DNA of 64,000 nt, taken from NCBI GenBank assembly GCA_001897475.1, contig MKSY01000014.1:25523-89522 (forward strand). The letters run 5' to 3'. The notes below the pieces were generated by a model. The model was given only the letters and a program-made list of their open reading frames with translations. It did no database searches and was not told the DNA's origin. Shown here piece after piece: positions 18,105 to 50,426 of this stretch. A program made the position numbers and the translations under genes. The stretch's first letter is position 1; each line of letters opens with the position of its first letter. Source of the stretch: Alphaproteobacteria bacterium 43-37 (lineage in GTDB: Bacteria; Pseudomonadota; Alphaproteobacteria; 43-37).

Positions 18105-18929
18105 TTATCCCCTCAGGATGTTCAAGATGTCCTGTGGAGCTTGGTTTGCGCGGTTCAACATCTGATAACCAGCGCTTTGACGAATCAGCTGCACCGCAAG
18201 GTTTGCCATGCCTTCAGCAACATTCAGGTCAACGATGGCGCTGTTGGCTTGGACGAGGTTTTCTTTTGTAACCGACGCCACATTCAACGCGAATCCAAAA
18301 CGACTTTGAGCCGCACCAACCTGCGCACGGGCTGTGTTGATCGCAGCTTCTGCCGCGTTGATGAGACCAACAGCAGCTGTTGCGTTTGTCTGTGAGGTGA
18401 TGGTTCCACCCAAGGTTGTCGTTGCGTTCTGGCAGTCTGCAATTGTAACAGCAATGTAATCGTTAGTGGTGACACCCGTTGAGATTTGGATTTTCTTAGC
18501 GGAAAATGAGCCATCAAGCAATTTATTGCTGTTGTAAGAGGTTGAAACAGCGATACGGTCAACTTCGCTTAACAGAGATTGATATTCTGTGTTCAAGTCA
18601 GCCAAGTTTTGCGTTGACAACTGTTCAGACATCGCCTGAGTAGCCAGCTCACGCATACGAATGATGATTTCCGAGATCTGACCCATTGCAGATTCTGCTG
18701 TTTGAAGAGCGGCATCAGCGCTTTGGATGTTGATTAAACAGGAACCCATACCCTGGATCTGCCCCCTCAAAGAGGTGCTGATCGCCATGGATGCAGCATC
18801 ATCTTGGGCGCGAGCCACACGAAGACCAGAGGATACTGAGTACATTGTCTTGCTTGCCGTTCTAGAGGCTTCACCGATCAAGCGTGATGTTTGAAGGGCA
18901 ACGAGGTTGGTTTGAATACTACTTGTCAT
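18105..18929 (-). CDS. Flagellin (short, D0-D1 only), copy 2
   Basis: 274 aa. The first ~100 and last ~75 residues are nearly identical to copy 1, and the RBS/5' end is the same (caagtaggagaataaaaaATG). The central ~100 aa diverge. Confidence 0.9.
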   Translation of the reverse strand: MTSSIQTNLVALQTSRLIGEASRTASKTMYSVSSGLRVARAQDDAASMAISTSLRGQIQGMGSCLINIQSADAALQTAESAMGQISEIIIRMRELATQAMSEQLSTQNLADLNTEYQSLLSEVDRIAVSTSYNSNKLLDGSFSAKKIQISTGVTTNDYIAVTIADCQNATTTLGGTITSQTNATAAVGLINAAEAAINTARAQVGAAQSRFGFALNVASVTKENLVQANSAIVDLNVAEGMANLAVQLIRQSAGYQMLNRANQAPQDILNILRG

Positions 18930-19048
18930 TTTTTATTCTCCTACTTGGATTATTACGATTTTACTTTTTATTTTTTTGCCACATTCTTTGTGGCTTTTTC
19001 CATCAACGCAATTTTGTCAAAGCGCTGGCGAAACCCTGTATTATATAT

Positions 19049-20314
19049 TTACTTTTCGGCGACCTTTTTATGAGTTGCCTTAGTATTTTTGCTCTTAGAA
19101 GCCATAATTTTTGCGAGGAAGCTCTCAATTGTCGGAGCTACTCCCTCACGCCATTTACGACCACTAAAAATCCCATAATGCCCAGCACCTAATTGAAAAT
19201 ATTCCTGCTTTTTCGATTCGGGCAATGACGGCGTTAACTTAAGAATTGAAGATGTTTGTCCTACTGGTGATATATTATCCAGCTCACCTTCAATTGTTAA
19301 AATTGCAGTTTGCTTAATGTTTCCTAAATCAATCTTGTAACCACGCCAATGGAACTCATTTTGCGGCAACAGATGACGCTGGAAAATACGATCAATTGTT
19401 TGCAAAATAAAGTCTGCAGGCAAATCCATAACTGATCTGTATTCATCATAAAATTTTGTATGAGCCATAATTTTTTCACCACTGCCCTGAATAAGGTTCT
19501 CATAAAATTTTAGATGCGAATCAAGGTGCCTCTTCGGATCAAGTGACATAAACCCGCTCAACATAATAAACCCTGGGCATACACGACGACCCGCCCCCGC
19601 ATATGATGATGGAACAACCGTAATCATGTTTTGATCAAACCACTGAATGGAATGACTCTTGGCAAACTCATTGACTTGTGAAGGATTCACACGAGTATCG
19701 ATAGGTCCGCCCATCAGTACAATCGCATTAGGCTTTGGTGCCAAATTAAATTGCTCCGCTAAAACCGTTGAAATAACCACTGGTACGGTTGGCTGACAAA
19801 CGGCCACAACAACAAAATCTTGCTTTAAATGTTTATAAAAAGTGAGAAGAAGATCTATGTAACTATCTAAGTCAAAGGCCCCATCTTGAATAGGAATATC
19901 ACGCGCATTCTTCCATCCTGTTAAATACACATCATGGGTTTCTAAAAGCCTTAATACAGTATCTCTCAACAAGCTAGGGTAATGACCTGAAAGTGGCGCT
20001 ACGATTAGTAGCTTACGACCTTTATTGGATGTATCTTTAACAAAATGCACTAAACTGCAAAATGCTTGATCCAATTCATGAACTTCTTTTACCTTAATAT
20101 TTGAACCATCAGTGATCACTTGCTCGATATCATAGCCCGGTTGGCCATATTCACGCGTATCGCGTTCTAGTATTGTGCTAGCTCCCAGCAATTGCCTTGT
20201 GACGGAATTTGGATATTGCTGCAAGTGCTGTTGTAAGGCTTTTTGATATAGCTCAGCCATATCATGAACTGGCTTTAGTAGCCTTGCCCCCATCTGGTAA
20301 AAATAATACAGCAC
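19049..20314 (-). CDS. Intracellular poly(3-hydroxyalkanoate) depolymerase (PhaZ family, Cys-type)
   Basis: 421 aa. The overall pattern resembles R. eutropha PhaZa1. The nucleophile elbow carries Cys (VAVCQP) rather than Ser, as described for that family. Confidence 0.55.
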   Translation of the reverse strand: MLYYFYQMGARLLKPVHDMAELYQKALQQHLQQYPNSVTRQLLGASTILERDTREYGQPGYDIEQVITDGSNIKVKEVHELDQAFCSLVHFVKDTSNKGRKLLIVAPLSGHYPSLLRDTVLRLLETHDVYLTGWKNARDIPIQDGAFDLDSYIDLLLTFYKHLKQDFVVVAVCQPTVPVVISTVLAEQFNLAPKPNAIVLMGGPIDTRVNPSQVNEFAKSHSIQWFDQNMITVVPSSYAGAGRRVCPGFIMLSGFMSLDPKRHLDSHLKFYENLIQGSGEKIMAHTKFYDEYRSVMDLPADFILQTIDRIFQRHLLPQNEFHWRGYKIDLGNIKQTAILTIEGELDNISPVGQTSSILKLTPSLPESKKQEYFQLGAGHYGIFSGRKWREGVAPTIESFLAKIMASKSKNTKATHKKVAEK

Positions 20315-20423
20315 ACAAGCACCTATTGTTTTTCTGATAAGTGATCATGGCTTAACTGCCTCTAAAAAAGGCTAAAGTTTCGTTACAATTTTATTAAAAG
20401 GCAATATTTAGCCATTATTTTCA

Positions 20424-21032
20424 TCACAAAGCTGCCCATTTCTTGAGCTTTTGAACCATTTCATCCACTGACGTTGCATGTGTAAAATGACCGACAAAGC
20501 TCCCATCTGGGCTAAAAACGTAGAAAATAGATGAATGATCGATAAGATAATGTTCACTGCCATGCTCATTTTTTTGCTGAACAGCATAAACTTTGTATGC
20601 TTCTTTGGCCTGTTCAATTTGCGCAGGCTCACCTGTTAGCCCCCAAAAAGATGGATGAAAAGTTTTTAAAAATTTTTTTATTTCTTCAGGCTTATCTCTT
20701 TGTGGATCCACTGAGATAAACACGGGCTGAATACGACCTTGTAGTTCGGGCAAACGGGATAAAGCCTCAGAAAAACTATGCATTCCCATAGGGCAAACAT
20801 CTGGACAAAATGTATATCCAAAATAGATAACAGCATATTTTCCCAACAGATCCTTATCTGTTTTAATTTTTCTATTTTGATCTATAAGATTAAAGGGCCC
20901 ACCAATCTTAGCGGTACCAATTACCTTATCCATAGGCAACTGGCTTGGGACATTCTTTTTGGCGTAGATATAAAGCGCGGTTGCAATACCTGCGCTAGCG
21001 ACCAAGAAGACTTTTAAGAATTTGATATTCAT
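20424..21032 (-). CDS. senC: SCO1/SenC copper chaperone for cytochrome oxidase assembly
   Basis: Thioredoxin-like FGYTFCPDVCP motif and an N-terminal membrane anchor. Start set at the internal ATG 21030-21032, which has a perfect aaggag RBS. Adjacent to regB/regA as in Rhodobacter. Confidence 0.8.
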   Translation of the reverse strand: MNIKFLKVFLVASAGIATALYIYAKKNVPSQLPMDKVIGTAKIGGPFNLIDQNRKIKTDKDLLGKYAVIYFGYTFCPDVCPMGMHSFSEALSRLPELQGRIQPVFISVDPQRDKPEEIKKFLKTFHPSFWGLTGEPAQIEQAKEAYKVYAVQQKNEHGSEHYLIDHSSIFYVFSPDGSFVGHFTHATSVDEMVQKLKKWAAL

Positions 21033-22462: not shown

Positions 22463-23008
22463 ATGCAAAACGATGAGCTTTTAAAACCCAAACTTCTTAT
22501 TGTGGATGATAATATTGTATTCCTGGATCGCCTAGGAAAAGCTATGGAATCCAAAGGCTTTGTTGTAACTAAAGCCGAAAGCATAGCAACTTGTGAAGCA
22601 CTCCTTGCTCACGAGACATTTACCCACACAATTCTGGATATGAAATTAGAAGATGGTCATGGTTTAGACTTAGTAACCAAGCTCAAAAGCACTAACCCAG
22701 GCATTCGCATTATTATGCTCACCGCCTATGCGAACATCGCTTCAGCTGTAGCAGCAATAAAGCTTGGCGCCATTGATTATCTGCCAAAACCGGCTGATGC
22801 TGATCAAATTTATAAGGTTCTCATGGGCGAAAAGATTGACGAGCAACCTAATATAGACTCTGTCCCATCGCCCGATCGCATTCGCTGGGAATACATTCAA
22901 CGGTCATTTGAAGAATGCGATCATAACGTTTCAGCCACAGCCCGTAAGCTTAAGATGCACAGAAGGACGCTTCAACGAATTCTATCCAAGTATGCGCCTA
23001 AACCTTAA
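22463..23008 (+). CDS. regA: Response regulator RegA/PrrA/ActR family (REC + Fis-type HTH)
   Basis: 181 aa. REC domain with LLIVDDN...D...K, a short linker, and a C-terminal Fis-like HTH (NVSATARKLKMHRRTLQRIL). Confidence 0.8.
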   Translation: MQNDELLKPKLLIVDDNIVFLDRLGKAMESKGFVVTKAESIATCEALLAHETFTHTILDMKLEDGHGLDLVTKLKSTNPGIRIIMLTAYANIASAVAAIKLGAIDYLPKPADADQIYKVLMGEKIDEQPNIDSVPSPDRIRWEYIQRSFEECDHNVSATARKLKMHRRTLQRILSKYAPKP

Positions 23009-24483
23009 AGTTCGTCTGGACCTTTCTCACCTGAGGTGGCTCGGCTATCAACTGTTACTTTGCTAGACTGATCTGCATTCTGAATTTTGAAGTTCAGCAA
23101 TGCTTTTTTAAGCTCAAACTCCATTTGCCTGAATGATTTAACCTCATTATTTCTAGAGATTTGATCAACAATCCTAGTTTTATCATTCGCTGATGAAGAA
23201 AAAGTGAACTCTTGAGCTAACCTATCAAATTCCCTTCCTAAAAATCTCTGCTTTGTAGCTTGATCTGGCTCTAAGAATTTATGAACAGTAACTCTATCAG
23301 ATACACGTTTTTGAATGACTTCTAAGGATTCGCCTGGCTTTGATAATGGGCTATTGCCTGTCATAATAACTGGAATAAGTCGAAGGTCAATCTTGCGTCT
23401 TAAAAACTCACTGTAAACAGATTCTACAGATGAATCTAAAAATTCAACCATAATTTCTCCTGCAACGGAACCTTGGCGAAAAGTTGCTAAATCTCCATCG
23501 TTAATGATAATGACCGGATTGAGTGTTTTTGAGCGAATAAGACAGGTCACCAACTCTCCAGCAATATCCTCTGTACCATAAAATTTTTCTTTTGTTATGC
23601 CCGCCAGAGAAATCTCACAATAAGGCAAACCAACCAGTTTAGCGATATTGCGTGACGTGGTTGTTTTACCAGAGCCTTGCACACCATAAAAATACGAAAT
23701 AAGCCTATAATTAATTGGCGATAGAGGGTTCTCGTTCATGGCAATTATGTGCCGAACAAGCATTGTCATAGCAGCAAGCTGCGGCTTATCTAAAGTCCAC
23801 AAAGCTCCTTCTACTTCAGTGGCGCTGTATCTTCCCACCACTGTTTTGGTTTTTGGAAATGCGAAGCGATCGGCCAACCGATTTCTAGTGACAGCGGGGT
23901 GCTCAGCATTACCTGTCCTAAGATCGATAATCTCCTTTCCCCACCGAAGTATTGTGCTTTGATCATATTCATTCCCTGGCGCGCATGAGTGCATCATAAA
24001 TTGAGCCTCAAGCTCGTCTAAAGCCGTATCAAAAATTGATTGAGAACCAAACACACCTAAAGCAAATAAGCTACCCATTGTTGGCGCGCTCGAAGCAGTG
24101 CTTCCTATGACTTGTGAAGCGCCGGAAGCACAAATACCACCTAAAATTATAGCCCCTAAACCACCCGTTCCCACAAACCTCGCTACCCCGACTGCCGCCG
24201 TCCCAATAACAAAAATTGGCATAGCATGGTTCATGGCACTCGATACAAAAAGGGAACGCCCTGCAGCATTCCTGTGCATTTGAATATGCGCTAGAGCTTG
24301 CTCAAGTCGAGAAAAACTGCACATTTTTTGCTGAGAGAAAAATTCATTAATATCAATCTCAGAATAAACCAACCTTTGAAGGTGAGGGTCATAAGAATAC
24401 ACAGGGTTGCTCATTGTGGAAAAGATGCAAAATGCAACAAGGGCCTTCTTGATGTGTTTTTTAATTTCGAATTTTAATTTCAT
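23005..24483 (-). CDS. Signal-peptide-bearing AAA+-like P-loop ATPase of unknown function (paralog 1)
   Basis: 492 aa. Hydrophobic N-terminus (KKALVAFCIFSTMS), a Gly-rich hydrophobic segment (residues ~90-150), Walker A YFYGVQGSGKTT, Walker B NPVIIINDGD, and sensor-1-like IMTGNS. Paralogous to 48912..50426. Confidence 0.5.
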   Translation of the reverse strand: MKLKFEIKKHIKKALVAFCIFSTMSNPVYSYDPHLQRLVYSEIDINEFFSQQKMCSFSRLEQALAHIQMHRNAAGRSLFVSSAMNHAMPIFVIGTAAVGVARFVGTGGLGAIILGGICASGASQVIGSTASSAPTMGSLFALGVFGSQSIFDTALDELEAQFMMHSCAPGNEYDQSTILRWGKEIIDLRTGNAEHPAVTRNRLADRFAFPKTKTVVGRYSATEVEGALWTLDKPQLAAMTMLVRHIIAMNENPLSPINYRLISYFYGVQGSGKTTTSRNIAKLVGLPYCEISLAGITKEKFYGTEDIAGELVTCLIRSKTLNPVIIINDGDLATFRQGSVAGEIMVEFLDSSVESVYSEFLRRKIDLRLIPVIMTGNSPLSKPGESLEVIQKRVSDRVTVHKFLEPDQATKQRFLGREFDRLAQEFTFSSSANDKTRIVDQISRNNEVKSFRQMEFELKKALLNFKIQNADQSSKVTVDSRATSGEKGPDEL

Positions 24484-27411: not shown

Positions 27412-28887
27412 ATGCATACACTAACCAAGTCCGCATTTGCTGTCATTGACATTGGATCAAACTCACTGCGACTAGTTATATTTAAAGAATTAAGCCGCCA
27501 TCCTCTCAAAATATTGGATGACAGCGTCATGTGTCGCCTAGGGGAATTAGATGATCAGTGGAATCTCAAAGACGAAAACTTAAGCCTAAGTTTTGAAACC
27601 ATCAACCGATTTAAACGAATTTGTGATACATTAAAAGTCAAACAAATTCACACCCTTGCCACAGCTGCAATCCGACTTGCCGCAAACAAAGACGTATTCT
27701 TAACGTATTGCAAAGAACAATTTGGCATAAATGTCAACGTTATCACAGGAGAAGAAGAGGCAAAACTTGCAGCCAATGGCGTTTTAAGTGCTTTCGAAAA
27801 ACCGCATGGCATTGTCGCGGACCTTGGTGGAAGCAGCTTAGAATTAACCCGAATGAACAAAGGACGCTTATGCGAGAAAATCAGCCTGCCAGTTGGTCCT
27901 CTTAATTTAAACACTTATACAACGCCCAGCCGTAAACAAGACTTCCTACACAAGCATTTAGCGGCAGCTAAGCCTCTTTTCACTGCCCCCATAGATACAC
28001 TCTACTTAGTTGGCGGTTCAACACGAGCCATTGCAAAAGCTTATATGGAAAAAGAGCGCTACCCTATTGAAATTATACATGGGTATGAAATGACAAAGGC
28101 ACAAGCCGTTGATGCTCTTTCGTGGCTACAATCCAAAAACCCAGAAGAGCTCGCTAAACTCCCACCGCGTGTAAGCCGGCGCAAACACCTGCTTCCAAGC
28201 GCGGCTCAGGTTATCAACACGCTCATTGAATCCGTAAATCCAAAAAATATTACCATTAGCGGATATGGACTAAGGGAAGGTTTTGTATTCTCCCTTCTGA
28301 CACAAGAAATTAAGAATGAAGACATACTAGCAACTTCTTGCCACACATTGATTAACTTTGAACAGGAGCTAACCCCTCTTTATCATCAACTTTCCGCATG
28401 GGCACAACCAGCCGTCTTCCACTCCTCATTTGATCAGGATCGTTACAAACGACTTTTGGATGCTATAGCCATCCTCAATAACATTGGCTGGGGTGCATTC
28501 CAAGAATATCGGGCCGAATATTCTTTCAAAAAAATCCTTCATTCCCCATGGATTATGTGCACTCATAAAGAACGCATCATCATTGCGCTAGCCCTTTTTT
28601 ATCGTTATGATGGCAAGAAAAAGGACCTAACCCTTCAACCCTATTTAACCTTAATTACGCCCGAAGAGCACTTATTCGCTCAAACTGCTGGCCTTATCAT
28701 GCGCTTTTATGCCTTGCTATTCGACAACATTCCGGCAACCATCAGTTTATTCTCCTATCAGATTTATGACAAAACGTTGCATATTCAAGCTCCGCCAGGG
28801 CTCATCCTTGAAGGACGCCTCAAAGGATTAGAAAAATCTTTTGCTAAACTTCTCAAGCTCAAGTTAAAATTCGACTTTGTTGAATAA
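27412..28887 (+). CDS. ppx: Exopolyphosphatase / guanosine pentaphosphate phosphohydrolase (Ppx/GppA), long form
   Basis: 491 aa. N-terminal AVIDIGSNSLRLVIF actin-like ATPase fold plus a C-terminal extension. Immediately downstream of ppk. Confidence 0.8.
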   Translation: MHTLTKSAFAVIDIGSNSLRLVIFKELSRHPLKILDDSVMCRLGELDDQWNLKDENLSLSFETINRFKRICDTLKVKQIHTLATAAIRLAANKDVFLTYCKEQFGINVNVITGEEEAKLAANGVLSAFEKPHGIVADLGGSSLELTRMNKGRLCEKISLPVGPLNLNTYTTPSRKQDFLHKHLAAAKPLFTAPIDTLYLVGGSTRAIAKAYMEKERYPIEIIHGYEMTKAQAVDALSWLQSKNPEELAKLPPRVSRRKHLLPSAAQVINTLIESVNPKNITISGYGLREGFVFSLLTQEIKNEDILATSCHTLINFEQELTPLYHQLSAWAQPAVFHSSFDQDRYKRLLDAIAILNNIGWGAFQEYRAEYSFKKILHSPWIMCTHKERIIIALALFYRYDGKKKDLTLQPYLTLITPEEHLFAQTAGLIMRFYALLFDNIPATISLFSYQIYDKTLHIQAPPGLILEGRLKGLEKSFAKLLKLKLKFDFVE

Positions 28888-35558: not shown

Positions 35559-36521
35559 GTGATACACCCATTGGCAAAGCAAAAAGATTTGAAACACTTT
35601 GCCGCAATAGACCTAGGAACAAACAGCTGCCGTCTACTTATTGCAACCCCAACAACGGCAGGTTTTAAGGTTGTTTTTGCCTTCTCACGCATGGTTAGGC
35701 TTGGCGAAGATCTAGCCCAGCATCAGCGAATCCTTGAGGGGCCCATGAATCGGACCATTCTTGCACTAAAGTTTTGCGCTGAAAAAATGTCCGAATTCAA
35801 TGTTGAGCACTACAAAGCTGTGGCAACAGCCGCCTGCCGCATGGCTGAAAATCGCGATGAATTCATTGAGCGAATTCATCAAGAATCTGGACTCACAGTA
35901 GATGTGATCGATGAGTCTACCGAAGCTGAGCTTTCGCTTTTCGGATGTTCCGGGCTTTTAAAACCCCAATACCCTTATGCCATCGTATTTGATATAGGTG
36001 GCGGAAGCACAGAGGTTATATGGGTTAGCCACTCTACCAAGGGTTCACCCACTATTATTGATTATGTTTCAGTACCCATTGGTGTCATCAATCAAGACCT
36101 CAATCAACTAACTGCCAAGACAATCTTGGCACCCATGGAGCACATGTTTGAGAAGCTTTCAGCCAAAAATAATATCTCCTCATATCTAGCTCAAGACCAA
36201 GTACAAATGATTGGAACCTCGGGAACAGTAACAACATTAGCCGCCATAGATATGAATCTCAAAAAATATGACCGAAAATATATTGATGGCGTTATGGTTT
36301 CCTCAAATCGCCTTTTAAGTATCATTGACCAACTCTACCAAATGTCTAACGATGAAAAACTTGCACATTCATGCATAGGTCATTCTCGGGCCGATCTTAT
36401 TATTCCTGGGGCAGAAATATTTAAATGTATCCATCATTTCTGGCCCGTCAAAAATCTTATTATTGCCGACAGAGGTGTTCGCGAAGGCATCCTTATGAAA
36501 ATGCTTCAATCTTCAACTTGA
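35559..36521 (+). CDS. Ppx/GppA family phosphatase, short form (second paralog)
   Basis: 320 aa. AAIDLGTNSCRLLIA and DIGGGSTE motifs of the Ppx/GppA ASKHA fold. Lacks the C-terminal HD-like extension of the 491-aa copy. Confidence 0.7.
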   Translation: MIHPLAKQKDLKHFAAIDLGTNSCRLLIATPTTAGFKVVFAFSRMVRLGEDLAQHQRILEGPMNRTILALKFCAEKMSEFNVEHYKAVATAACRMAENRDEFIERIHQESGLTVDVIDESTEAELSLFGCSGLLKPQYPYAIVFDIGGGSTEVIWVSHSTKGSPTIIDYVSVPIGVINQDLNQLTAKTILAPMEHMFEKLSAKNNISSYLAQDQVQMIGTSGTVTTLAAIDMNLKKYDRKYIDGVMVSSNRLLSIIDQLYQMSNDEKLAHSCIGHSRADLIIPGAEIFKCIHHFWPVKNLIIADRGVREGILMKMLQSST

Positions 36522-47583: not shown

Positions 47584-48915
47584 TTGTTTTCTTCAGTAAT
47601 ATGGGCGCTACCCTTTACCGGCATTATACTCTCTATGGCTATATGCCCACTGATTGCACCACGCTTATGGTCACAGCATTATGGCAAAATTATTGCCGCC
47701 TGGTGTTTTGGGCTTTTGGCCTTTGTTTTTATCATTAGTGGATGGAAACCAACTTTTTCCCTTAGCTTGCACTCTTTAAATGATCACTACCTTCCTTTCA
47801 TCATACTTGTAGCTGGCCTATATAGCATTGCAGGGGGAATCAAAATTAGGATCCAAACACCTGGAACCCCTCTTTCAAACACAATTTTCTTAGGGCTGGG
47901 CAGCCTACTTGCAAGCGTTCTTGGGACAACTGGTGCAGCCATGGTCTTAATTCGCCCGTTCATGGAGATGAATGCACATCGCAACATTCGCCGTCACCAA
48001 ATCATGTTCTTCATCTTTTCCGTTGCCAATATTGGGGGCAGCCTCACACCAATCGGCGATCCACCTTTATATATTGGCTTTTTGCAAGGAGTGCCATTTT
48101 TCTGGACAACGCTTCATTTATTATTTCCATTTCTAGCCATTTTCATACCGTTAATGATAATTTTTTACTGGGTAGATTTTTATTTTTACCGCAAGGAAGA
48201 TCCTATAACAGAGCGCTTTCATGGCGAATATGCACCAGCTTCTAAAGAAAGGCTCATTGAAATTGATGGTATACCAAATATCTTGGCTATACTCGGCGTA
48301 ATTGCCTTAGTAATCATCTCAAGCCTTTGGCCACAAAAGTTTGTCACCTGGTCTGATTGGACCGTTGGTGACGCCATTCGAAATATTGGCATCATCATCA
48401 TTGCGCTCTCATCTTACAAATTAACCTCTCCGTTAATTCGCATTGATAATAACTTTGATTGGCACCCTGTCCAGGAAATCGCCAAAATTTTTGCTGGTAT
48501 TTTTATCACTGTCACCCCTGTTATTGAAATGCTTAAGCTGGGTAACAATGGCCCATTTCATACCTTATCTGCTTTTTTGATGCCTAATGGAGCCCCAAAG
48601 AATAATGGCTTTTTCTGGATAGCTGGCGGGCTATCAGCTTGGCTTGATAACGCCCCAACCTATCTTGTTTTCTTTCACTTTGCTGGTGGTGATGCCGGAA
48701 CACTAACCACCACATTTGCTAAAACGCTCACAGCCATTTCTGCTGGGGCCGTTTTCATGGGCGCTTTGACATATATTGGGAATGCTCCAAATTTTATGAT
48801 CAAATCAATTGCCGAAGAAAGCGGCATAAAAATGCCTAGCTTTTTTGGTTATATAGCTTGGTCAGCGGTGATTCTATTGCCCCTACTTTGGCTGGTTAGC
48901 TTCTTTTTTTCCTAA
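47584..48915 (+). CDS. Polytopic membrane permease, ArsB/NhaD-like ion transporter superfamily (tentative)
   Basis: 443 aa, ~11-12 TM helices, internal repeat, GDPPLYIGF motif. The family assignment is by resemblance only. Confidence 0.35.
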   Translation: MFSSVIWALPFTGIILSMAICPLIAPRLWSQHYGKIIAAWCFGLLAFVFIISGWKPTFSLSLHSLNDHYLPFIILVAGLYSIAGGIKIRIQTPGTPLSNTIFLGLGSLLASVLGTTGAAMVLIRPFMEMNAHRNIRRHQIMFFIFSVANIGGSLTPIGDPPLYIGFLQGVPFFWTTLHLLFPFLAIFIPLMIIFYWVDFYFYRKEDPITERFHGEYAPASKERLIEIDGIPNILAILGVIALVIISSLWPQKFVTWSDWTVGDAIRNIGIIIIALSSYKLTSPLIRIDNNFDWHPVQEIAKIFAGIFITVTPVIEMLKLGNNGPFHTLSAFLMPNGAPKNNGFFWIAGGLSAWLDNAPTYLVFFHFAGGDAGTLTTTFAKTLTAISAGAVFMGALTYIGNAPNFMIKSIAEESGIKMPSFFGYIAWSAVILLPLLWLVSFFFS

Positions 48916-50426
48916 AGCTCACCTTTGGGTTGGCTATCTTGAGAAGAGCTTTTATGCTCAGCGTGATGCGGCACTTTAGCTAACATTTCTTGGGCTTTCC
49001 TAAGCTGTTTAAAATACACCCTCTTGGTATCTTCAATCACCACCCTCATGCCCATATCCTGTGCAGACTCTGGTACACTAGTGGTGGTGTTCCAATTCGC
49101 AAAATACTCATCAACCAATGATTGCATTGTTTCGAGAGTCACGATGCCATTTGAAGGATATTGCTTCATAAGAGTTGGAACAAAAGTATCTTTAAGATAC
49201 TTTTTACGATAATTATCATCAAAGCCCTCAAACTTGAGTGTATGTACCCGCTGTTCAAAAGCCTCGACAGGACTATCTTTTTTCATAATCCGGCTGTTAC
49301 CACTGTAAATGAACATCATATTGCCAATATCAATCTGGTTTTCCAAAAATTGATCTTTAACAGACCGCATTTCAGGATCATTGAGCGACAAGACAAAACC
49401 CAGCATTGGGCTTCCAGGAGTATTAAGCTCCCAGTCAGCATCGTCCAAGATAATAACAGGATTTAACACAGCCGTATCGATCAAGCATTGCGCCAACAAA
49501 CCAATATTAGTACTTGAACCCAGCAAATCTTCTACTTTTTTGCCTGACAAGTTGATGGTGCAAGACTTGCCACCAATTGCTCGAGCCAGAGCATTAGCCG
49601 CTTGGGTTTTACCAGTTCCTGGTTTTCCATAAAAATACAGTGAAACCTTTCGTCCAATGGTTGGGTCAGTATTTTGGCTTTGAATAACATGGCGGAAAGC
49701 AATATCTTTGAGATCTTCAATTAAATCTGGATTAAGACCTACGAGGCTATCTTCAAGCGTCTTAGGGTTATAGACTAAACTTGTCAGATTCTGAGGCATT
49801 TTCAAAACATTAAACATTTGTTTGACGCCGTTACTATCCTCCTTTTGACCTCTACGAACCAAAAACAAATGATTAGCTAATTTTTCACGTAAGACAGGTG
49901 GCAATTTATGCCATTGCCAAGCTAGGAGCACTTCATAATCTGATAAAAGATCTTCTTCAACAAATGGCTTACACGAAGCTTCAGGCAGTATGGATCCTCC
50001 AACTTTGCATATCCCTGTACCTATACCGGAAGCCACAAGGCGGATATTTTTTGAAAGCTTATTAGGCAACTCCATCGTCCAAGCTGATTGCGCTACAAAA
50101 AAGCTAAACGCTTGCCCAAACGCCTGATTCGCCGGCAATTGAAAAGTAACCCCAGCCACTACCATAAAAAACGCACACAACTCAGCTGTATCAGCGCCAA
50201 GCTTCAAAATGGCCCCATTAAATCTTTGGTTACGCAAAAAATCTTTAGCTTCATCAATTGAGCTTAGACTCTGTGGAGAAGCATAAAGTGATTGTGCACT
50301 GAGAAATTCGTATCGTTGATCATAATAAGGGCTATCTTGAGCGCCTTGCTTATCATTAGCATAAGCCCCCTCACTCAATGCCATTGCTAAAACAGACACA
50401 GCAATCCTAGTTGTTTTCTTGATCAT
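48912..50426 (-). CDS. Signal-peptide-bearing AAA+-like P-loop ATPase of unknown function (paralog 2)
   Basis: 504 aa. Signal peptide MIKKTTRIAVSVLAMALSEGAYA, hydrophobic Gly-rich mid-region, Walker A YFYGKPGTGKTQ, Walker B NPVIILDDAD, sensor-1-like IYSGNS. Same architecture as 23005..24483. Confidence 0.5.
   Translation of the reverse strand: MIKKTTRIAVSVLAMALSEGAYANDKQGAQDSPYYDQRYEFLSAQSLYASPQSLSSIDEAKDFLRNQRFNGAILKLGADTAELCAFFMVVAGVTFQLPANQAFGQAFSFFVAQSAWTMELPNKLSKNIRLVASGIGTGICKVGGSILPEASCKPFVEEDLLSDYEVLLAWQWHKLPPVLREKLANHLFLVRRGQKEDSNGVKQMFNVLKMPQNLTSLVYNPKTLEDSLVGLNPDLIEDLKDIAFRHVIQSQNTDPTIGRKVSLYFYGKPGTGKTQAANALARAIGGKSCTINLSGKKVEDLLGSSTNIGLLAQCLIDTAVLNPVIILDDADWELNTPGSPMLGFVLSLNDPEMRSVKDQFLENQIDIGNMMFIYSGNSRIMKKDSPVEAFEQRVHTLKFEGFDDNYRKKYLKDTFVPTLMKQYPSNGIVTLETMQSLVDEYFANWNTTTSVPESAQDMGMRVVIEDTKRVYFKQLRKAQEMLAKVPHHAEHKSSSQDSQPKGEL

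Follow-up and report, generated by a model that had tools for sequence, protein, structure and literature searches.

Two Lon-like genes with signal-peptide-like starts

Two genes on the reverse strand of a 64,000-nucleotide stretch of DNA from Alphaproteobacteria bacterium 43-37 (contig MKSY01000014.1; the whole stretch is referred to here as the window) were found to encode proteins, p1 and p2, in which a putative Sec-type signal peptide and a hydrophobic segment precede a nucleotide-binding module of the AAA+ type. Both had been singled out in an earlier note on this DNA, and both open reading frames (ORFs) were present at exactly the positions given there; this layout, which the note had regarded as an unusual architecture shared by the two proteins, was likewise supported. 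Their features are listed below by window position, with (-) for the reverse strand; lengths are in amino acids (aa), and structural details refer to an AlphaFold2 (AF2) model and its predicted local distance difference test score (pLDDT).

48912..50426 (-): p1, Lon-like AAA+ protein of predicted exported type, 504 aa; whole ORF including the stop codon
50358..50426 (-): p1 residues 1-23, putative Sec-type signal peptide MIKKTTRIAVSVLAMALSEGAYA, with AYA before the predicted cut and N after it; from the sequence and a heuristic scan, kept in the orthologues P0002 and P0003
50259..50357 (-): p1 residues 24-56, conserved N-motif RYEFL..LY with invariant Y39; from alignments, AF2 pLDDT 91-92
50076..50201 (-): p1 residues 76-117, hydrophobic helical hairpin (helix 76-96, loop LPAN, helix 101-117); AF2 helices H57-96 and H101-117
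49677..49949 (-): p1 residues 160-250, helical region matching the three-helix bundle that precedes the AAA module in LonA (the Lon 'LPW' corresponds to P211)
48972..49676 (-): p1 residues 251-485, LonA-type AAA+ alpha/beta domain and helical lid; from profile and structure searches
49605..49628 (-): p1 residues 267-274, Walker A, GKPGTGKT
49485..49562 (-): p1 C289...C314, clade-specific co-varying cysteine pair, possibly a disulfide
49500..49520 (-): p1 residues 303-309, remnant of pore loop 1, aromatic-free, with the Lon TY(V/I)GAMP deleted; from alignment with Lon
49440..49457 (-): p1 residues 324-329, Walker B, VIILDD, with Asp in place of the catalytic Glu
48915..48971 (-): p1 residues 486-504, disordered tail ending in KGEL (48915-48926); AF2 pLDDT about 50
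23005..24483 (-): p2, paralogue of p1, 492 aa; whole ORF including the stop codon
24394..24483 (-): p2 residues 1-30, putative Sec-type signal peptide MKLKFEIKKHIKKALVAFCIFSTMSNPVYS; from the sequence and a heuristic scan
24028..24252 (-): p2 residues 78-152, Gly/Ala-rich hydrophobic region in two adjacent lobes (19-mers at 87 and 109, Kyte-Doolittle hydropathy, KD, of 1.71 and 1.61)
23662..23685 (-): p2 residues 267-274, Walker A, GVQGSGKT
23497..23514 (-): p2 residues 324-329, Walker B, VIIIND, with Asp replaced by Asn and Glu by Asp
23008..23019 (-): p2 C-terminal PDEL

A BLASTP comparison aligned p1 (residues 245-415) with p2 over 177 aa (32% identity, 50% positives, E = 4e-23), a match that far exceeds a common P-loop, and multiple alignments showed that scattered positions of the N-terminal half (Y39, E165, R191/G193 and P211) were kept as well. 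On these two grounds sequence comparison indicates that p1 and p2 are true, old and diverged paralogues, as the earlier note had maintained. The 4-nt convergent stop overlaps that it reported were also present at both genes, the 3' end of p1 being shared with a CitMHS-type permease gene (cTAAag) and that of p2 with a response regulator gene (tTAAag). A word-indexed protein search recovered two orthologues of p1 only, and none of p2; the two showed 47% identity and occupied the equivalent genomic position, in the order epimerase, AAA gene, permease, RuvX and LptD, with the identical stop overlap kept at both loci.

The AAA+ module, treated as a generic one in the earlier note, was reassigned as LonA-derived on the basis of a profile search of the PDB, Foldseek and a motif map. 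Pfam returned only a weak, generic AAA match and the best NCBIfam match was a partial one to endopeptidase La. A profile of the four closest sequences matched LonA/LONP1 best among PDB entries (E = 3e-14), in an alignment that starts ahead of Walker A and takes in the whole lid, and the top Foldseek matches were Lon throughout. The AF2 model used was built on a 62-sequence alignment (mean pLDDT 89.5, predicted template modelling score 0.83), in place of a 4-sequence model that was weak in the N-terminal part. The earlier note had set a firm placement in a well-characterised cytoplasmic family, with no secretion signal, against its own proposal; what was found is a module that belongs firmly to such a family, Lon, in proteins in which a putative secretion signal is nevertheless present. 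The possibility of an anti-phage defence ATPase was rejected, as the PADLOC matches were at the level of the P-loop only (about 20 bits or less).

The three-helix bundle, the alpha/beta domain and the lid are homologous in sequence and fold to those of LonA (human LONP1 and bacterial Lon), and Walker A, the sensor-1 Asn (N377), the Arg finger (R393) and the sensor-2 Arg (R461) align with Lon and are kept, the last three being invariant in the clade of p1 and p2 (a group of ten sequences, see below) and retained in at least 50 of the 52 other members. Walker A and Walker B read as in the earlier note (YFYGKPGTGKT and NPVIILDDAD in p1; YFYGVQGSGKT and NPVIIINDGD in p2), and its sensor-1-like motif was found (IYSGNS in p1, IMTGNS in p2), although the consensus given as (Y/T)(S/G)GNS had to be changed to (Y/M)(S/T)GNS. 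In contrast, p1 and p2 lack three of the four features that define LonA, namely the LAN N-domain (PF02190, for which Pfam gave no match in p1, p2 or 62 family members), the Ser-Lys protease domain (PF05362, with no Lon_C match, both proteins ending about 20 residues past the lid) and the pore-loop aromatic: pore loop 1 is six residues shorter than in Lon, and the substrate-gripping tyrosine of TY(V/I)GAMP has been lost. The M41 zinc protease domain gave no Pfam match either. Features of p1 and p2 that are foreign to LonA are the DD or ND pair in Walker B, the putative signal peptide, the hydrophobic hairpin and a KDEL-like tail.

The N-terminal signal peptides claimed for both proteins were supported by inspection and by a home-made heuristic (positive n-region, h-region of 7-15 residues, small residues at -3/-1), the means by which signal peptides were called here. 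The n, h and c regions read MIKKTTR, IAVSVLAMALS and EGAYA before N in p1, and MKLKFEIKKHIKK, ALVAFCIFSTM and SNPVYS before Y in p2, with a hydrophobic run of 11 residues in p1 (between R7 and E19) and 12 in p2. The heuristic passed 72 of the 90 family members of ~500 aa (~80%) and none of 15 Lon and other controls; the median hydrophobic run was 13 residues in the family and ranged from 11 to 14 in the clade. A lipoprotein was rejected on the absence of a lipobox on inspection. The N-motif that follows takes the family-wide form 'Y..F...LYDQ' and leads into a 40-residue helix, the second half of which (76-96) pairs with helix 101-117 in the AF2 model. Over 62 members, these two hairpin helices had a mean KD of 1.0 and 1.15 and 4-7% charged residues, and the flanking helices were polar. 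The hydrophobic segment of the earlier note thus exists, although its hydrophobicity is only moderate (best 19-mer KD 1.61 in p1 and 1.71 in p2).

The wider family and its C-terminal tails

An exhaustive profile search of 1.84 billion representative proteins returned 3896 matches with a cut-off of E <= 1e-3; a cut-off of E <= 1e-10 left 490 of them, and one of E <= 1e-30 left 23. The best were mostly proteins of ~450-600 aa with Walker A near residue 260-290, whereas longer relatives carried two or three AAA modules and some of these kept the Lon protease domain. The earlier note had described a family duplicated in a small genome; the family is not confined to a duplication in this genome but is widespread in metagenomes. 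Its members were nearly all metagenomic, and the sole organism names recovered were two Endozoicomonas, which are host-associated animal symbionts. Pfam and NCBIfam contained no dedicated model, covering the family only through generic AAA and partial Lon models, the literature searches brought up no account of it, a profile search with 62 sequences returned mostly Lon, and a scan of a genome collection gave, among the matches listed, ordinary Lon genes and no family member. Judging from these comparisons, p1 and p2 are best explained as members of a large undescribed family of protease-less LonA AAA+ derivatives with putative Sec-type export signals.

Degeneracy of Walker B was confined to the p1/p2 clade, where the acidic pair was DD in five sequences, NE in two, ND in two and EE in one, while the remaining family was mostly DE (35 of 52). 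Another mark of the clade was the cysteine pair C289/C314, with both residues present in 13 sequences of the family, neither in 45 and one in 4; because the two are present or absent together, a disulfide is hinted at, which in turn would suggest an oxidising compartment.

Leu at the last position preceded by an acid at -2 (an [ED]L end) was found in all ten of the members closest to p1 and p2 and in exactly these among 152 family hits (0/142 for the others). The ten tails read KGEL (p1), KSEL, IQEL, PDEL (p2), KKEL, HEDL, KDEL, GEEL (twice) and REDL, and represent nine distinct proteins and one fragment, one GEEL sequence being a fragment of the other. In a neighbour-joining tree the [ED]L proteins fell into one group of ten, in which the exceptions ended in QDCS and RQGL, and the 52 sequences outside had none (8/10 against 0/52, Fisher p = 1.3e-8, a value that ignores shared ancestry). 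Tails of the canonical KDEL type were carried by P0011 (KDEL), P0010 (HEDL) and P0028 (REDL). Overall, the terminal Leu and the preceding acid were fixed, position -3 was loose and -4 was often K, H or R, and the linker leading to the tetrapeptide was unconserved, rich in indels and disordered in the AF2 model. What the KDEL receptor mainly recognises in a ligand is the 'DEL' tri-carboxylate together with the free carboxyl end, position -4 acting as a variable 'passkey' (PMC8248988). In its Leu at -1, acid at -2 and variable -4, the pattern of the clade matches what this receptor reads, and its members are putative ligands. A link between the stop-codon overlaps and the tail was rejected, since the overlap sets only the third base of the Leu codon.

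A third protein with such an end, p3, is unrelated to p1 and p2:

13328..14143 (-): p3, 271 aa, C-terminal EEEL; N-terminal putative signal peptide MKKNLFASVLSLLFIACCFTEVVAQ; contains the motif 'DHNCC'

It had no match in Pfam, PADLOC or the PDB and no relative in a metagenome scan, and no transmembrane (TM) segment was seen on reading its sequence. The proteins p1, p2 and p3 were the only 3 of the 59 window ORFs of at least 100 aa to end in [ED]L, and all three had signal-peptide-like starts. The background of such ends is not zero, as one protein encoded in the flanking DNA, a cytoplasmic-looking HTH/DUF1488 protein without a signal, ends in KTEDL.

The surroundings of some family members in other metagenomic contigs were also recorded. 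Around P0036 (8067-12317 of locus L088, on a 1.52-Mb contig) there are three genes with ankyrin repeats and large ORFs that match no family, a setting like that of the effector-rich regions of endosymbiont genomes. The clade member P0010 (L093, 390-6127) comes just after a phage-type integrase gene and directly upstream of genes for an HlyD-like adaptor and a C39-peptidase ABC (ATP-binding cassette) exporter. At L092 (6246-17352) a canonical Lon gene is followed by a gene for a 391-aa AAA protein and by two genes for ~1200-aa proteins with several AAA modules and Lon_C; at least one of the latter (P0023) has a signal-peptide-like start, and they may be exported Lon proteases.

Cellular location and possible role

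A positive N-terminus followed by a hydrophobic stretch places the part that follows outside the cytoplasm, whether or not it is cleaved, and the ATPase would be back in the cytoplasm only with an odd number of further membrane passes. The hydrophobic runs of the clade are not long enough to cross a bilayer. In the region from the signal peptide to the ATPase, no 19-mer of the close orthologues P0003 and P0009 reaches a KD of 1.2, and in 35 of the 62 members none reaches 1.6, a TM-grade second segment being present in the other 27. As a hairpin makes an even number of passes and these orthologues lack a TM-grade segment, the ATPase would end on the extracytoplasmic side, a location that the hairpin and the weak second segment favour. 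The earlier note had proposed a secreted or membrane-anchored, surface-facing ATPase. The case for an extracytoplasmic location has become stronger with the signal-peptide-like starts of ~80% of members, the TM-poor close orthologues and the KDEL-like tails, although a cytoplasmic topology like that of FtsH remains a serious rival. On balance, the interpretation put forward in the earlier note is supported in part.

We favour, tentatively and somewhat short of calling it probable, the reading that p1 and p2 are exported, host-directed nucleotide-binding proteins derived from Lon. Sec would carry the protein across the inner membrane, with loss of the signal peptide, and the ATPase module would be left on the extracytoplasmic side. 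The protein would then leave the bacterial cell, a secretin gene with pseudopilin-like genes being located ~5 kb past the window. A host KDEL receptor might bind the free (D/E)L end, so that the protein would be held in, or returned to, the endoplasmic reticulum (ER) or an ER-derived compartment that contains adenosine triphosphate (ATP), and the hairpin would keep it at the membrane. Since the protein keeps nucleotide binding and inter-subunit sensing but has no threading loop and only a weakened catalytic pair, it would probably act as a slow nucleotide-dependent switch or remodeller in the manner of torsin, an unfoldase being unlikely. Support from context comes from the EEEL end of the unrelated signal-peptide protein p3, the ankyrin-repeat neighbours of one family member, the Endozoicomonas names, and the secretin, patatin and phytase genes outside the window.

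In a more specific version, which we regard as rather doubtful, the proteins would be a bacterial equivalent of torsin, resident in the lumen of the host ER or in a symbiont vacuole derived from it, fuelled by lumenal ATP of the host and with the hairpin on the membrane; the lineage would in that case use 'Sec signal peptide plus xxEL' as a general address label, worn by p1, p2 and the unrelated p3. The likeness to torsins, the ER-lumenal AAA+ proteins of eukaryotes, is one of layout (signal peptide, hydrophobic segment, no threading loop and, as proposed here, a lumenal location). The hallmark of torsins is a Clp/Hsp100-D2-like AAA+ module without an Arg finger; p1 and p2 do not have a module of that kind and are not torsin homologues. 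The pairing of a Sec signal peptide with a KDEL-type end is known from exported toxins, which reach the host ER by retrograde transport with the help of such an end (KDEL in cholera toxin A, RDEL in E. coli LT and REDLK in Pseudomonas exotoxin A). These are AB toxins with ADP-ribosyltransferase domains, whereas the cargo in p1 and p2 is an AAA+ module and several of the clade tails are non-canonical; to our knowledge no AAA+ example of this pairing has been known. Bacterial AAA+ machines are held to be strictly cytoplasmic, ATP being absent outside, and an exported Lon-derived family, if true, would break that rule. A clade with a eukaryotic ER-retrieval tag would likewise point to a new class of host-directed proteins that travel by the general secretory pathway and not by type III/IV injection, and would provide a bacterial functional analogue for torsin, the lone ER-lumenal AAA+ protein of eukaryotes.

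Several observations weigh against export to a host. The degenerate Walker B could mean a complete loss of ATPase activity. A signal peptide is missing from ~20% of the ~500-aa members, which begin directly at 'Y.GVFD..IYDQ', the motif that comes after the signal peptide in other members. Among the tails, KGEL (p1), KSEL, IQEL and KKEL lack the acidic -3 residue of canonical signals, and the PDEL of p2 lacks a basic -4. None of ~25 flanking genes (~20 kb) joins a signal peptide to an [ED]L end, and the label is therefore not a general one. The window itself consists of ordinary housekeeping and flagellar genes. Finally, p1 81-99 (KD 1.61) and p2 87-105 (KD 1.71) are borderline TM-grade segments at the position of the second TM helix (TM2) of FtsH.

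The last point bears on the alternative of a bitopic inner-membrane protein like FtsH, which we consider unlikely though serious. Its uncleaved anchor would have the N-terminus inside, residues ~24-75 would form a small periplasmic domain and ~76-100 a TM2, the Lon-like ATPase would work in the bacterial cytoplasm on envelope or membrane substrates, and the ...EL end would serve for docking in the cytoplasm. A hydrophobic segment does recur at ~76-100 and is clearly TM-grade in P0016 (1.97), P0022 (1.97) and P0011 (1.77), the cytoplasm is the sole place with ATP, the bacterial AAA+ machines known to us are all cytoplasmic, and C-terminal docking motifs are common in AAA+ proteins. However, the N-terminal runs of the clade fall short of a TM helix, the segment is missing from P0003 and P0009 at the lower KD cut-off and from more than half of the members at the higher one, and the conserved hydrophobic element consists of two adjacent helices, an even topology. 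The KDEL-like pattern, the EEEL of the soluble signal-peptide protein p3 and the cysteine pair would all be left unexplained. Among published ideas, the one that comes closest to a bacterial AAA+ protein outside the cytoplasm is the prediction that in some FtsH/AAA+ paralogues of phytoplasmas the ATPase faces the cytoplasm of the host (PMC6981957). What these paralogues have in common with p1 and p2 is an AAA+ module associated with a membrane; unlike p1 and p2, they are of the FtsH type, with TM anchors, usually a zinc protease and no KDEL-like tail, and phytoplasmas have no outer membrane.

Less likely still, in our judgement, is that the proteins are exported and retained in the periplasm or envelope of their own cell, as nucleotide-binding and perhaps non-hydrolysing scaffolds or chaperones bound to the membrane by the hairpin, with the ...EL end read by a bacterial partner instead of a host receptor and, if the bacterium is intracellular, with host ATP entering through porins. 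The evidence for export is the same under this alternative. A non-catalytic role would suit the degenerate Walker B, and the neighbourhoods of both genes are conserved ones of housekeeping and envelope functions, with Lpt genes, SurA, a porin and a D-Ala-D-Ala carboxypeptidase in the vicinity of p1. Against it, a free-living cell has no ATP in its periplasm, although Walker A, sensor-1, the Arg finger and sensor-2 are all invariant; recognition of a C-terminal (D/E)L by a sorting or docking system of bacteria is not known to us, and the variable -4/-3, fixed acid-Leu and disordered linker have the look of KDEL-receptor ligands. Functionless Lon fragments in decay, with shared features inherited by chance, would account for the degenerate Walker B and the lost pore loop but are very improbable in view of the intact ORFs, the conserved synteny with 47% identity in two other genomes, the invariant nucleotide-binding residues, the very confident predicted fold and the hundreds of family members.

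Flanking genes and other window content

Past the right end of the window, at about 5-9 kb (L090, 13840-16797), there is a gene for a secretin (PF00263) and, after it, a pair of ORFs whose N-termini are of the prepilin type (..EAFGL(V/I)E..). Together these could form a type II secretion or pilus module and hence a candidate outer-membrane route. Further along the same locus (18630-20813) are genes for a patatin phospholipase and a protein tyrosine phosphatase (PTP)-like phytase, each with a signal-peptide-like start; enzymes of these types are often host-directed in intracellular bacteria. About 2-4 kb past the left end (L091, 6243-7888), the KTEDL protein mentioned above was identified as the partner of a HipA-type toxin.

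The window has a GC content of 42.7%, and its genes include those for the bc1 complex, haem synthesis, Lpt proteins, polyphosphate metabolism and flagellins. It contains further pairs of paralogues:

16950..17774 and 18105..18929 (-): two tandem flagellin paralogues of 274 aa each, with nearly identical N- and C-termini, adjoining FliD and FliS
27412..28887 and 35559..36521 (+): two Ppx/GppA phosphatase paralogues, one of which adjoins a polyphosphate kinase

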